Assembly: GCA_963798485.1 (NCBI GenBank)
Contig: CAWCTR010000021.1
Coordinates: forward strand, 1-64,000
Direction: 5' to 3'
DNA from: an uncultured delta proteobacterium
Lineage (GTDB): Bacteria; Desulfobacterota; Desulfomonilia; UBA1062
Length of the DNA: 64,000 bases
A program made the position numbers and the translations under genes. This document shows positions 1 to 7,025 of the stretch, in pieces (within the stretch, counting starts at the first letter, position 1; each line of letters opens with the position of its first letter). The notes under the pieces are model-generated. The model made no database searches. It was not told the origin of the DNA and was given only the letters and a program-made list of their open reading frames with translations.

Positions 1-33
1 CCCTGGGGGTGAGATTCCCCCGGGCTACTCGAC
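1..33 (+). mobile_element. 3' end (domain VI and AC terminus) of a group II intron; the rest lies outside the window
   Basis: CCCTGGGGGTGAGATTCCCCCGGGCTACTCGAC forms a hairpin followed by CTACTCGAC. This matches the typical bacterial group II intron domain VI with bulged A and AY terminus. Domain V and the RT ORF are not in the window. Confidence 0.8.
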
Positions 34-130
34 TTGGCGCTCTGCAAGAGTCTGAAAACTGATGATCTGCTGATGTTATCTGTATAAAGAGCTGTTCTGT
101 TACTGATCACGCATCATGGCACGAAATCTA
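34..130 (+). repeat. Degenerate repeat element, copy A (left end cut by the intron)
   Basis: CTGAAAACTGATGATCTGCTGATG at 52-75 and TGGCACGAAATCTA at 117-130; AAAAC-to-TGGCAC distance is 62 nt. Confidence 0.7.
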
Positions 131-190
131 TTGGCGTCATATGTCCATTTTGGACATACTATTATTACAGAAAAACGCAGACTCAAAATG

Positions 191-892
191 TTAGTAATCT
201 TCTTCAAATTCATTGCCTAACATATGAATTGTTATTTCTATCTTACCATTCTCCAACCTTTTAAAGGTCCGGCCCCAATTTTCAGGTTCAGATCCATCGT
301 AGACATAAATGCATAATTGTTTGTTTTCAATTTTAATTCCATTAGTTATAAGGAGACCACATACCATACCTCTTATATTTTTACGGTCAGAATTGCCATA
401 CGTGTTTTTTATCTCCTGACCGTTAAGAAGAATTTTCCCCATATTCCCAATTAGATACACACGATTAGGTTGAACAGAAAATTGAAGTCTTATGTCCTCT
501 TTTGAGTATTCTTCCACACATGTAATTGTTTCTCTTCCAATGCAGGAGTAATGATAATATGAAAATATCACGGTATGTACCCCTGGCAGAAATTCTATAA
601 ATGCAGGGTCATTACCTGGCAAGTCATCTATTGCTATGCCATCTATTGATGATAATTTGTAATCGCCCTCAGTATATAGAACTGCTATTTTTTCAGGGGA
701 CAATAATGGACCCTTGTATGTCCTTATAGGTTCTCCAGGGGAAAGACGTTGGCCTATCATTAATCCAGTGAGCGTGCCTCTGTCTCCAAATTGCTTTTGA
801 GACCATCTCATCATACCCTGACTACTACACCCTCCCATAGTCAGCCATATAATCAAGAAGATGATGTTCCACTCTACAATTCTAATTTTCAC
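191..892 (-). CDS. Hypothetical lipoprotein
   Basis: 233 aa ORF with GTG start in AT-rich DNA. Hydrophobic N-terminus ends in a lipobox-like LTMGGC. The YxGPLLSPEKIAVL...SIDG...LPGVHT pattern resembles small beta-rich lipoproteins. Confidence 0.7.
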   Translation of the reverse strand: MKIRIVEWNIIFLIIWLTMGGCSSQGMMRWSQKQFGDRGTLTGLMIGQRLSPGEPIRTYKGPLLSPEKIAVLYTEGDYKLSSIDGIAIDDLPGNDPAFIEFLPGVHTVIFSYYHYSCIGRETITCVEEYSKEDIRLQFSVQPNRVYLIGNMGKILLNGQEIKNTYGNSDRKNIRGMVCGLLITNGIKIENKQLCIYVYDGSEPENWGRTFKRLENGKIEITIHMLGNEFEEDY

Positions 893-1070
893 CGTACATA
901 CCTTTTTGAAAGAATATATTTGAGACTAATATTATACTATATTTATTGATTATTTTCAAGGACAACATCATCCCATATTTAAAGCATATTCAGCCTCGGG
1001 TATAGTGCCTCATGATAGGCTGTACCAATAATAAGCGATAAAATAATCGTAGAGATATCAGAATAGATAT

Positions 1071-1188
1071 TGCGATATCTTCTCGGTTTTGAGAAAGCTG
1101 AAAACTAAACATATATTTTCAAATCTATGATATTTAGGCTATAGGCTCAAAGCGCCTATCTTGGTACGAATTCTACACTTTTTATTAA
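1071..1188 (+). repeat. Degenerate repeat element, copy B
   Basis: TGCGATA (1071), GGTTTTG (1085), CTGAAAACT (1098), TGGTACGAATTCTACACTTTTTATTAA (1162-1188); AAAAC-to-TGGTAC distance is 61 nt. Confidence 0.65.
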
Positions 1189-1284
1189 GGGTACGCTTAC
1201 GATATTACAACCACACTATTGACTTCTAAAATAACAGGGGTATTTTATTTCAATGAAATAATATTCTCACATGAAACCTTCTAG

Positions 1285-1968
1285 TTGCAGACTTTGTGGT
1301 CTATACTGCCAGTTGTAGACGGGGAACACATGAGAGGAGAGCTTAAAATCATCTTAGTGTTGAATAATGGACTTTATAATAGCGGTACATATTTGAAATA
1401 TATTTATTCAGTACTTTTGATTAATTCTCTATTTGGAATCGTCCTTGCAACATCGGTTTCAGCAGGTAATTTTTATCTCTATGGAGAATATGGTATTTAT
1501 TTACCACAATCAAAAAATGATAAAGTGGAAATCCAAGATGGATGGAATGCTATATTAGGAGGGGGGTATGCTTTTAAAGATTATGCTGCAGAACTCGACC
1601 TCGGTTTCACTGATAGTAGTAAATTAAAAGGGAGCAAAATACAACCTTCTGCCTGGGGAGCTACTTATCCCGATCTAACTATTTTTTTCATACAACCTTG
1701 TTTAAAATTCCAACCAAGAGGTATCCCGATTTATTTTAAGATTGGACCCAGGTTTTATTATATATATTCGGAACTCATGACATTGCCTGGAGATTATGTG
1801 ACATATTCAGATAATCCCATCGGGGCTTTTGCCAGTGCTGGCCTCAGTTATCATGGCTATGGGATTGAAATAAAATATTTCAAGGTGACAGCTAAACTAA
1901 GACAGGTAGATGTTCCTTGCGATGGATTTACTGCAAGTATGACTTTTCTTTACGATTTTAATAGATAA
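1285..1968 (+). CDS. Putative outer-membrane beta-barrel protein; real start probably TTG at 1393
   Basis: From 1393 there is a signal-peptide-like stretch (KYIYSVLLINSLFGIVLATSVSA). Alternating aromatic/Gly beta-strand patterns follow, and the C-terminus is TFLYDFNR. Confidence 0.6.
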   Translation: MQTLWSILPVVDGEHMRGELKIILVLNNGLYNSGTYLKYIYSVLLINSLFGIVLATSVSAGNFYLYGEYGIYLPQSKNDKVEIQDGWNAILGGGYAFKDYAAELDLGFTDSSKLKGSKIQPSAWGATYPDLTIFFIQPCLKFQPRGIPIYFKIGPRFYYIYSELMTLPGDYVTYSDNPIGAFASAGLSYHGYGIEIKYFKVTAKLRQVDVPCDGFTASMTFLYDFNR

Positions 1969-2183
1969 TGATAAGAATATAATAGATTTATTAGTCAATT
2001 AAATCATATGCTAAGGCTTTTAAAAATTGTTTTTTTAATAAGGTTCTATCATCTGTTGATGTCACTTAAGTAATTTAACTTACGTTATCATTCATTTATC
2101 TTTTATTATTCATAAAATAACAGAACCTTACATATCTTCAATAAATTGCTAACCTCAATCTAAAATTACGAACCATTGATCTC

Positions 2184-2302
2184 TGCGATAAATCGGTGGT
2201 TTTGAACATGCCCCAAAACCGATGATCTCCTGATGAGAGTTATACTTTCTGGAACCAAACTCAGAGTATAACGATTGGCACGCTATCTTGACTTTTTATG
2301 AA
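2184..2302 (+). repeat. Degenerate repeat element, copy C
   Basis: TGCGATA (2184), GGTTTTG (2198), CAAAACCGATGATCTCCTGATG (2214-2235), TGGCACGCTATCTTGACTTTTTATGAA (2276-2302); AAAAC-to-TGGCAC distance is 61 nt. Confidence 0.7.
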
Positions 2303-2373
2303 TATGCAAAAGAGTCCATTGTCAGATCTTGTTTTAGTGTAGGTTCACTATTTGTAAGATTAAATCATAGCTG

Positions 2374-4221
2374 TTATAATTCATAAAACGGCATGGTGAT
2401 CTCATATGCCCCGCTTGACAGGCTTGACTTCACCGGGAGGCCTGATTTTTCGAACACCTTTAACATGGATTTATTCGATGCAAGGACGTCGGCTACGAAT
2501 CCCTGAAGTCCACGCTCCTTGGCAAGGCGTATGAGCATTTCAAACAGAGAAGAGGCAATCCCAAGGCCTTGATACTCTTCATCAACGACAAAGGCGACAT
2601 CACCATAAGGCCGGTTTCTGTCTTTGACGAAGCGCGCCTCTGCAATAATGTGCTCCTGATCCAGAGGGCCTATCAGGGCTACGATAGACAATATGCGGTT
2701 ACAGTCAACATTTACATACTGCTGCATCTTTGCATGGGGCATGGTCTTTATGGGGCTGAAGTAGCGATAATAAACGGTCTGATCGGAAAAACGATAAAAG
2801 AGGCGGCGCATCTCTTCTTCATCAGAAGGTTTGATATGGCGGAATCTTACTTCTATGCCGCCTTTGAATTTATGTCTTGCCGTGATATCAGCTGGGTACA
2901 AGGTCGCACATTGAGGCAGGAAGATCTGATCGGGGTAGAGAATATTTTTTTTCTTCCCTTCCTCAACAAGACGTTCCCTGTCCTCTGGGTGCGCCACATC
3001 AATGAGTGCCTGGGCCCGTTCGCGAACGGTTCTCCCTCTAAGGTTGGCTACTCCGTATTCTGTAATCACCATGTCCACGGATTCTCTAAACCCGAGAAGG
3101 TTGGGGAGTTCTTCAACGGAAAGGAGGATATTGGGATTACCCTTGCGGTTCCTGCTTGGTAGGGCAAAGATAACACAGCCGCCTTTGGAAAGCTCTGCTC
3201 CATTAATGAAATCCATGGCCTCACCCGGGGTGGTTGCAACAGCACCTTTGCCGATATGAAGTGCTATGCGACCGGAAATATCAACTTTACGGGCCGGTAT
3301 TATGGAGATGAAACGCGGGTTGAGGCCTATCTGAACCGGATTGAAGACGAGGTCTATACCCTGGAATTCAACCAGTGGGTTCTTGTCAAGCCAGTGCATA
3401 AGATCCTTGGTGCCGAAGGCATAAGAGACAAGGGATTTCCCCCGGTAGATACCTTTGTTTCTGTTTGTCACTGCACCGCTGTCTATCAGTTCCATAAGTG
3501 CATCCGTAATGAAAGGGGAATGGACTCCCAAGTTTTTTTTGTGCTCAAGATGCTTGCCCAAGGCCTCATAGATAGGGCCTATGGAAAATGAAATGCAGCT
3601 GCCATCTTCAACTACGGATGCAATATTTAAGGCTACCTGATCAAAGATATCATCAACAGGCCACCTGGCAAAATACAGGGGATCGTCCTCTGAGTGTATG
3701 AGGAAATCAAATTCACTGACAGAGATAAATGTATCACCAAAGGTATACGGCACCTTGGTATTGATCTCTCCTACCACCAGTTCCGCCCGCTCAATTGCCT
3801 GCCTTGCCACATCTACTGATACGCCGAGGCTGACATAACCGGCCTCATTAGGTGGTGTCACTTGGATAAAGACTGCATTTATAGGGAGTTGGCCCGACTC
3901 GATAAGCGCCGGAATACGGGTAAACCGGCTTGGAATAAGGTCAACATGCCCTTGCGTAATGGCGCTGCTCGCTGCCCACCCTGAAAAAAAGGTCTTCAGT
4001 CTGAACTTCTGGGTCTGCAATTCCTTCATGGTAATGAGATCACCAAGGCACACGAGTTGAATCAGCTCAAGGTCTTGCAAGTTCGGCAAATCAGAGTTCA
4101 TGAGGTGTTTGACAAGTGTCCTGGGCTCAGCAGCCCCTGTGCCAAGAAAGATCTTCATGCCGGGTTCGATCTTTTCCATGACATCAGATGGGCTGACAAT
4201 TTTCTCTTTCCAGTCACGCAT
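2374..4221 (-). CDS. Acetyl-CoA hydrolase/4-hydroxybutyrate CoA-transferase-family domain fused to a C-terminal Pat-like GNAT acetyltransferase (catalytic Glu absent)
   Basis: Family motifs SLGVSVD, VITEYGVANLRGRTVRERAQALI.VAHP; GNAT motif VVDEEYQGLGIAS. ATG at 4221 is preceded by GAAGGA. HSP occurs in place of HSE. Confidence 0.85.
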   Translation of the reverse strand: MRDWKEKIVSPSDVMEKIEPGMKIFLGTGAAEPRTLVKHLMNSDLPNLQDLELIQLVCLGDLITMKELQTQKFRLKTFFSGWAASSAITQGHVDLIPSRFTRIPALIESGQLPINAVFIQVTPPNEAGYVSLGVSVDVARQAIERAELVVGEINTKVPYTFGDTFISVSEFDFLIHSEDDPLYFARWPVDDIFDQVALNIASVVEDGSCISFSIGPIYEALGKHLEHKKNLGVHSPFITDALMELIDSGAVTNRNKGIYRGKSLVSYAFGTKDLMHWLDKNPLVEFQGIDLVFNPVQIGLNPRFISIIPARKVDISGRIALHIGKGAVATTPGEAMDFINGAELSKGGCVIFALPSRNRKGNPNILLSVEELPNLLGFRESVDMVITEYGVANLRGRTVRERAQALIDVAHPEDRERLVEEGKKKNILYPDQIFLPQCATLYPADITARHKFKGGIEVRFRHIKPSDEEEMRRLFYRFSDQTVYYRYFSPIKTMPHAKMQQYVNVDCNRILSIVALIGPLDQEHIIAEARFVKDRNRPYGDVAFVVDEEYQGLGIASSLFEMLIRLAKERGLQGFVADVLASNKSMLKVFEKSGLPVKSSLSSGAYEITMPFYEL

Positions 4222-4310
4222 AACATTTCCTTCATAGTTTATGTTCATTCAAGACACCTATAATGGCAACAACTTGTTTTGAAAAGGGGGAAATACACAG
4301 AAATTATGGA

Positions 4311-4346
4311 AATAAAACGCCACCCCATCAATCAGACGGGGTGGCG
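4311..4346 (-). terminator. Intrinsic terminator downstream of hppA
   Basis: Stem CGCCACCCC (4318-4326) / GGGGTGGCG (4338-4346), followed on the minus strand by TTTTATT. Confidence 0.75.
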
Positions 4347-4373
4347 CCCAGAGTTTCTTTTATTAGCTTCTAA

Positions 4374-6815
<2,442 letters not shown>

Positions 6816-7025
6816 GTCTCATCTCCTTGTTTATTGGTCACTACATCGAATATGCGCCCATAACAGGCACATTTCTATCCTAGCTCCAAATTTAATATTA
6901 TATCTGTAAATTATCTCTGTCTGATATATGTTGCATAAGCACTGGTTTGTGCTTTGATAGATGCTACCCCTCTCCTACGAACCCACCCAATTCCTTCATG
7001 AGTGAATCATCATTCAGCCCACAAA

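Follow-up and report, generated by a model that had tools for sequence, protein, structure and literature searches.

A dispersed, locally co-oriented intergenic repeat family at the borders of variable DNA in uncultured Desulfomonilia bacteria

At the left end of a 64,000-nt stretch of DNA from an uncultured delta proteobacterium (hereafter the window, the first 64 kb of the 271-kb contig C21, CAWCTR010000021.1, of the 4.3-Mb, 32-contig assembly GCA_963798485.1, here G000), three similar sequences of equal orientation, copies A, B and C, bracket single genes in an AT-rich island, which raises the question of whether these repeats are the joints of a gene-cassette system distinct from integrons. 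An earlier note on this DNA had suggested such a system, with ends of transposable elements or a repeated regulatory or RNA module as alternatives. Its observation is confirmed, while its interpretation is partly supported. The repeat represents a lineage-specific intergenic DNA family of uncultured Desulfomonilia bacteria, classed here as interspersed junction/landing-pad repeats, and the favoured reading, tentatively put at a probability of about 0.4, is that each unit serves as a recombinogenic junction and landing pad, that is, as a protein-bound junction for recombination or insertion. The element acts as DNA and is not an RNA, an attC site or a sigma-54 promoter.

All three copies are read on the forward strand and were found by a repeat search at the places, and with the motifs and spacings, originally noticed. 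Copy B (1053..1200) and copy C (2166..2313) are full length. The former shows TGCGATA at 1071, a GGTTTT/AAAAC hairpin at 1085-1105 and the variant box TGGTACG at 1162-1168, the latter TGCGATA at 2184, the hairpin at 2198-2221, the core at 2215-2235 and TGGCACG at 2276-2282. Copy A (33..145) has its core AAAACTGATGATCT at 55-68 and TGGCACG at 117-123, with the end beyond 130 being estimated from the usual length of the family. Within the window, 55-75 and 2215-2235 are identical at 19/21 positions, 1161-1188 and 2275-2302 at 75%, and 1071-1092 and 2184-2205 at 73%. Counted on the sequence, GGTTTTG starts 14 nt from TGCGATA in copies B and C, and the distance from AAAAC to TGGYACG amounts to 62, 61 and 61 nt in A, B and C, respectively. 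The final nhmmer profile matches copy A at 33-130 (profile positions 7-104, E 7.3e-11), copy B at 1073-1176 (E 9.1e-15) and copy C at 2186-2288 (E 1.4e-13), and a sequence-only covariance model, R1, covers B at 1065-1188 (E 1.1e-20) and C at 2171-2307 (E 2.2e-18), both of which are part of its seed alignment.

That this likeness exceeds chance was already evident from single-copy queries, as copy B alone retrieved 10 other loci with nhmmer (E ≤ 1.3e-6) and copy C even more. Iterating the profile gave 11, 34, 59, 64 and 64 matches in the 4.3-Mb genome. Hence, the iteration converges, and instead of forming a local three-copy array with its recombinase just off the window, the family numbers at least 64 copies, dispersed over at least 20 contigs, with A, B and C being the only ones on the 271-kb contig. 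All 64 copies are intergenic, open reading frames (ORFs) being called here and throughout by a longest-ORF heuristic. Pairwise BLAST of extended copies revealed discrete ends, located at about -7 to -14 (5') and +100 to +106 (3') of the profile, and additional conservation over about 20-30 nt upstream of it. Accordingly, the unit comprises about 135 nt, beginning about 20 nt ahead of TGCGAT and ending about 25 nt past TGGCACG, and had initially been drawn too short. Its consensus consists of TGCGAT, a variable left module bearing either the hairpin CGGTTTT...AAAACYG (type 1) or TTGGCGCTTTCGAAA (type 2), the near-invariant core AAAACYGATGATCTTGGnTTGAAAC and a distal part of the form CAGAGCGT-N6-TGGCACGnnATCTAY, in which the TGGCACG-nnATCT box is found about 60 nt 3' of the core. 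By eye, without statistics, GATCT/AATCT motifs recur at three places, namely near -10 at the 5' end, within the core and within the 3' box.

The distribution of the family is that of a lineage-bound element. In a scan of 61 genomes with R1, at least 51 matches each were obtained in G000 and the congeners G002, G003 and G011, followed by G007 (50), G004 (21), G001 (11), G008 (10), G010 (8), G013 (6) and G006 (5), and a single one each in G009, G012 and G014. With no match in G005, 13 of 14 congeners are positive. Low counts were also established in 9/22 genomes from other genera of the same family, and none of the 24 genomes of the sister family gave a match. When 185,579 species genomes were scanned for an exact pattern, 32 stretches were obtained. 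In 17 of these, nhmmer identified convincing copies, and all 17 belong to records with titles naming Desulfomonilia, delta proteobacterium or Deltaproteobacteria metagenome-assembled genomes; the remaining stretches look like chance matches. In metagenomes, the pattern matched 94 stretches, and R1 gave 138 matches in the 80 loci examined. Viral contigs (pattern scan), plasmids and phages gave no match to the repeat. Neither Rfam nor the literature listings and abstracts searched hold a description of it.

Do other copies also bracket single genes, as in the window? Here, each interval holds one ORF, facing in opposite directions: ORF1 of 233 aa (191..892, - strand) between A and B, and ORF2 of 212 aa (1330..1968, + strand, counted from the ATG at 1330, with the longest frame starting at 1285) between B and C. 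Neighbouring copies not more than 10 kb apart are found on the same versus the opposite strand at a ratio of 20:6 in G000, of 36:6 in 89 non-redundant loci from other assemblies and of 42:10 when pooled at E < 1e-6. Among 42 co-oriented intervals, 23 contain one ORF of at least 90 aa, six contain two, two contain four and four contain five or more. The interval ORFs are nearly evenly divided between the strand of the repeats (35) and the opposite one (36), and the orientation of copies is independent of GC skew, with the four combinations counted 17, 17, 15 and 15 times. The co-orientation together with the one-ORF mode thus marks single genes between co-oriented repeats as the typical local pattern of the family, and tandem arrays split by single variable ORFs on either strand are a general feature of it. 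The spacing of about 1.05-1.1 kb, previously considered fixed, did not hold up elsewhere: in the loci of the other assemblies it varies from 206 to 7573 nt, with a median of 1432 nt and quartiles of 881 and 2090 nt. Among 410 ORFs near copies, recurrent clusters encode sensor-kinase-like proteins, IS110 transposases, a large membrane protein, secreted proteins and an intron reverse transcriptase.

Copies are furthermore associated with the edges of variable DNA. In the window, the GC content is 0.27-0.41 up to about position 2400 and mostly 0.43-0.58 beyond, and homology to all 14 congeners starts at 2379-2428, in ten of them at 2379-2381, in agreement with an AT-rich island ending about 70 nt past copy C, as was first noticed. 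The conserved flank (2379..4248, - strand) encodes an acetyl-CoA hydrolase/transferase plus GNAT protein according to Pfam (ORF 2374-4248). In G007 and G011, where this flanking gene is 92 and 90% identical, respectively, the gene end corresponding to 2379 abuts DNA equivalent to G000 contig C14 from position 6587 onward. Owing to this junction, window positions 1-2378 and C14:1-6586 can be considered as one insertion of at least 9 kb that is split by a contig break. The C14 part of the island includes a further copy, whose relative orientation is the same, and a 197-aa ORF with a secreted-looking product. At 2374-2392, exactly at the island boundary, the C-terminus of the GNAT-fusion gene reads ...PFYEL* and in G007 ...PFNE*, and the insertion has thus probably replaced the last codons of this gene. 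The tail between copy C and the island edge (2303..2378, + strand) also occurs as a repeat elsewhere in the genus, as the query 2303-3400 matches with its positions 1-63 to 1-81 at unlinked places in G002, G003, G004 and G013.

At eight compared loci, chosen for adjoining long ORFs so that the proportion is not unbiased, the homology block ends within 44-90 nt of a copy in six cases and at 165 nt and more than 1.1 kb in the others. At the locus on contig C30, G002 has both the copy and the conserved gene, with differing DNA past the copy. On C9, an array of nine copies has a mosaic make-up: for successive gene-sized segments, the best matches are found on different contigs of the relatives G002, G003, G007 and G011, where their order differs. 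One three-ORF segment of 2.35 kb (G000 C9:80624-82975 and G002 C16:44278-46629) is 93% identical, which is suggestive of recent exchange since conserved genes of the two species are only about 78-88% identical, and it starts at GAAATCT directly after TGGCAC of a repeat.

A mosaic structure is also evident within the repeat itself. When comparing the left half (profile 1-45) and the right half (56-102) of 105 distinct near-full copies, left-half and right-half identities correlate with r = 0.29. The right halves are at least 85% identical in 33 pairs, of which only six reach this value in the left halves too, and among 112 pairs with similar left halves the right halves are not more than 60% identical in 39. 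This decoupling argues for separate histories of left and right halves.

Four site-specific elements, an insertion sequence (IS) of the IS110 family, two group II introns and a miniature inverted-repeat transposable element (MITE), have converged on this one repeat as a safe harbour. The IS of 1.57 kb encodes a 341-aa transposase matching DEDD_Tnp_IS110 and Transposase_20, and its end lies directly after TGGCAC at 7/8 sites. At the far end, the repeat resumes with CACG..ATCT in all five full-length copies (G000 C9:83791-85355 and four others, L060:491-2056), and 6/7 IS110-type transposase genes of the genome adjoin a copy. At the transposase-proximal end of the IS, the last 65 nt or so can be aligned, in collinear order, with the 5' half of the repeat. 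Because of this resemblance, insertion probably rebuilds a shortened repeat.

The first intron, ORF-less and about 690 nt long, is present with its 3' end at five places in the genome (window 1-33, C2 at about 13.5-14.2 kb, C7 at about 625.3-626.1 kb, C14 at about 505.6-506.4 kb and C17 at about 79.2-80.0 kb). In four copies the 5' end is visible; these have about 690 nt in common, and each is preceded by the repeat's own 5' end, ATAACT(G/T)CGATAAA. Rfam models RF01999 and RF00029 match one of the copies above the gathering score. Insertion takes place after TGCGATAAA, the homing site being ATAACTGCGATAAA followed, across the insertion point, by T, and the same repeat-intron junction is found in G007. 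The contig, and with it the window, starts inside such an intron: positions 1..33 (+ strand) are its last 33 nt, the end of domain VI. Copy A is consequently the 3' exon, its 5' end being cut by the intron. The second intron (RF01999) lies in the repeat core, following GATCTTGGTTTG at C9:74200; its truncated 5' part spans C9:74201-74561 of G000 (L091:10201-10561), and copies with 92-93% identity exist in G002 and G003. Finally, the core of two repeat copies in G003 (L201, G003:C43, 2961-3105 and 4180-4324) is interrupted by a MITE about 150 nt in length, whose 18-nt inverted ends are perfect (GAGGCTGTCGAAAAACTC in the first copy) and whose insertion apparently entailed a 3-nt duplication. In G000, several repeat copies have similar ends directly at their 5' edge.

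In the favoured reading, an enzyme from another part of the genome would join foreign gene-sized DNA in beside a resident repeat copy, each event leaving one further copy in the same orientation. Such events might give rise to co-oriented arrays with about one gene per interval and cargo on either strand, as well as to copies at the edges of variable islands and to hybrids of left and right halves. The family being high-copy and conserved, mobile elements may then have adopted it as a safe landing pad. A more specific proposal is that gene accretion takes place independently of integrons, with the repeats as its recombination sites; each site would be defined by its sequence of about 135 nt, crossover would occur at the GATGATCTTGG core or close to it, and the recombinase would be encoded elsewhere. 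This is rather doubtful, and to about the same degree it is doubtful that such a system adds single genes with their own promoters, in either orientation, to growing arrays and shuffles them, alongside the classical integrons.

Several results weigh against a junction role. The 410 ORFs lying not more than 2.5 kb from a copy do not include any recurrent tyrosine or serine recombinase, and among the compared loci there is no cassette with both breakpoints inside a repeat. A gene-cassette system would fit the co-orientation and the modal single ORF; neither an enzyme for it, nor a circular junction, nor a cassette caught in motion was found. The 2.35-kb segment was considered as a mobile cassette and rejected, its G002 junction resembling an IS end and its other end being without a repeat. 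Likewise, half copies clustering at profile 42-49 were tried as a sign of the crossover point but are at least partly intron or MITE insertions, and this argument is weakened since some of these half copies are merely interrupted repeats; the breakpoint histogram is biased by the definition of the halves and was not used as evidence. Moreover, 7/42 co-oriented intervals are without an ORF of at least 90 aa, many copies are solitary, and a copy number varying from 0 to more than 50 among congeners fits a transposing element as well. With a recombinase and a moving cassette lacking and the family being dispersed, both MITE-like ends and a repeated module stay live as alternatives.

The main rival is a non-autonomous MITE-like element moved in trans, with arrays arising by local hopping into the AT-rich spacers of islands. 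It accounts for the swings in copy number and is possible, albeit not probable. The unit is discrete with consistent ends, its copies are strictly intergenic, and at some metagenome loci partial inverted copies overlap the 3' end; in size, discrete ends, intergenic position and copy-number differences between close species, the family resembles MITEs and ERIC/Correia-type repeats. Inverted 12-mer ends with at least 9/12 matches are found in 17/55 copies, compared to 5/55 in shuffled sequences, but this is barely above the direct-orientation control (9/55), leaving the inverted ends weak. In addition, no target-site duplication was detected in 55 copies over all end offsets at k = 3-9, where the top signals of the scan were conserved TTT runs. 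Neither the co-orientation (36:6 and 20:6) nor the reassorted halves are predicted by transposition. A parent element with the same ends was not found, and the counts of Y1_Tnp genes (one in G011, two in G007 and three each in G009 and G014) do not track those of the repeat.

Less probable still is a regulatory module spread together with imported genes, either a sigma-54-type promoter with activator site or a DNA-binding platform such as a silencer of foreign DNA. The TGGCACG heptamer equals the sigma-54 -24 element, the genome has rpoN, a CGGTTTT...AAAACYG dyad is located about 75 nt upstream of the box in type-1 copies, and GATCT-type motifs recur by eye. However, the 23 canonical sites of the genome read TGGCAC-N5-TTGC, whereas the family has TGGCACGnnATCTAYR, with ATCTAY in the -12 region and no GC at -12. 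Furthermore, the downstream ORF is on the same strand at 28/64 copies but on the opposite one at 36/64, the upstream ORF is on the same strand in 31 and the opposite one in 32 cases, and what copies A and C face is in each case the 3' end of a convergent gene. With the -12 element lacking and no bias of orientation towards genes, the sigma-54 promoter was rejected.

It is very improbable that the repeats are highly divergent attC sites recombined by the genome's own integrases, forming arrays like those known as CALINs. Chromosomal integrons, e.g., the sequence-conserved repeat arrays of Vibrio cholerae, indeed offer a close likeness, having co-oriented, lineage-conserved repeats of about 120-135 nt with mostly single ORFs in variable DNA. 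Three intI genes of G000 score above the curated TIGR02249 cut-off (C5:12795-13733, C19:228-1175 and C12:6524-7471), as do genes in 7/14 congeners. attC sites are reported targets of IS1111-type IS and of group IIC introns (PMC3001079; PMC11187229), and invasion by IS110/IS1111-type IS and group II introns is thus common to attC and the repeat. In contrast to attC, consensus and single copies are without GTTRRRY/RYYYAAC at their ends, conservation is in sequence and not in structure, and RNAalifold on 41 copies and both strands gives no end-to-end hairpin; when B and C are folded as DNA, either strand shows only small local hairpins (z -0.64 to -2.07). The earlier view that these are not attC sites was therefore borne out. 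In the surroundings of six intI genes (G000 C5, C19 and C12, G007 C12, G008 C11 and G012 C51), covering about 6-19 kb on each side as the contig permits, R1 found no copy at E ≤ 1, and the copies nearest to the partial intI of G003 C43 are about 15 kb off. As a positive control, the attC-like array beside the C5 intI (C5:1648-8974) uses other repeats, four of which end in GTTAGAC, GTTGGAT, GTTGGGC and GTTAGAC. Hence, classical arrays exist separately in the same genome. The repeats do not adjoin intI, although CALINs would not require this, and they occur on at least 20 contigs and have cargo on either strand (35:36).

A structured non-coding or cis-regulatory RNA family is hardly credible, as the roughly 100 nt of conserved sequence and the local hairpin of type-1 copies, with z below -1.5 in 16/64 copies, stand against the lack of a consensus structure in the same RNAalifold run, the absence of the hairpin from type-2 copies, an orientation random with respect to genes and the absence of an Rfam family match, no match being found at E ≤ 10 over copies A or B and only a single weak one over copy C (Histone3, 2173-2225, - strand, 15.7 bits versus a gathering score of 34). 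Altogether, Rfam gave only five weak matches at E ≤ 10 on window 1-3000, all far below the gathering score.

Repetitive extragenic palindromes (REPs), which are about 35 nt long, and the mosaic elements built of them (BIMEs) are likewise high-copy and intergenic; the repeat differs in its length of about 135 nt, in being without a family-wide palindrome, in its concentration in variable islands with local co-orientation and in having no link to the number of Y1/RAYT-type genes. REP-type repeats are reported to be natural targets of IS110-family elements (PMC11208160; 10.64898/2026.03.19.712850), and the convergence of four elements makes the family described here a ready-made natural target set for IS110-family elements. 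If the repeats are indeed junctions, they would represent a second route to gene-cassette arrays apart from integrons, with a site logic of its own, in an uncultured lineage that is common in metagenomes from sediment, peat and soil. Even as a selfish repeat, the family would be useful, as its copies show where accessory DNA begins and ends in these genomes. A contribution to assembly breaks is probable as well, many copies lying near contig ends and the window starting inside the lodged intron.

Contigs from four sequencing runs cover the conserved genes and the repeat ends of window 1-7000 but not 235-936 and 1171-2106; the best run contains 0.24 of the sampled words and one RNA run 0.07, values which have no bearing on expression or absence. 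The window contains no tRNA. ORF1, an orphan with a lipoprotein-like N-terminus, has no Pfam family and no match in a six-frame search of 30 relatives. On the C14 side of the island, and thus in the same strain-specific insertion, a 1634-aa protein (G000 C14:1253-6157) shows weak matches to STAND NTPases and long internal repeats, resembling a defence protein, and ORF2 bears a weak outer-membrane beta-barrel signature (Pfam OMP_b-brl, E 0.0066, below the curated cut-off).

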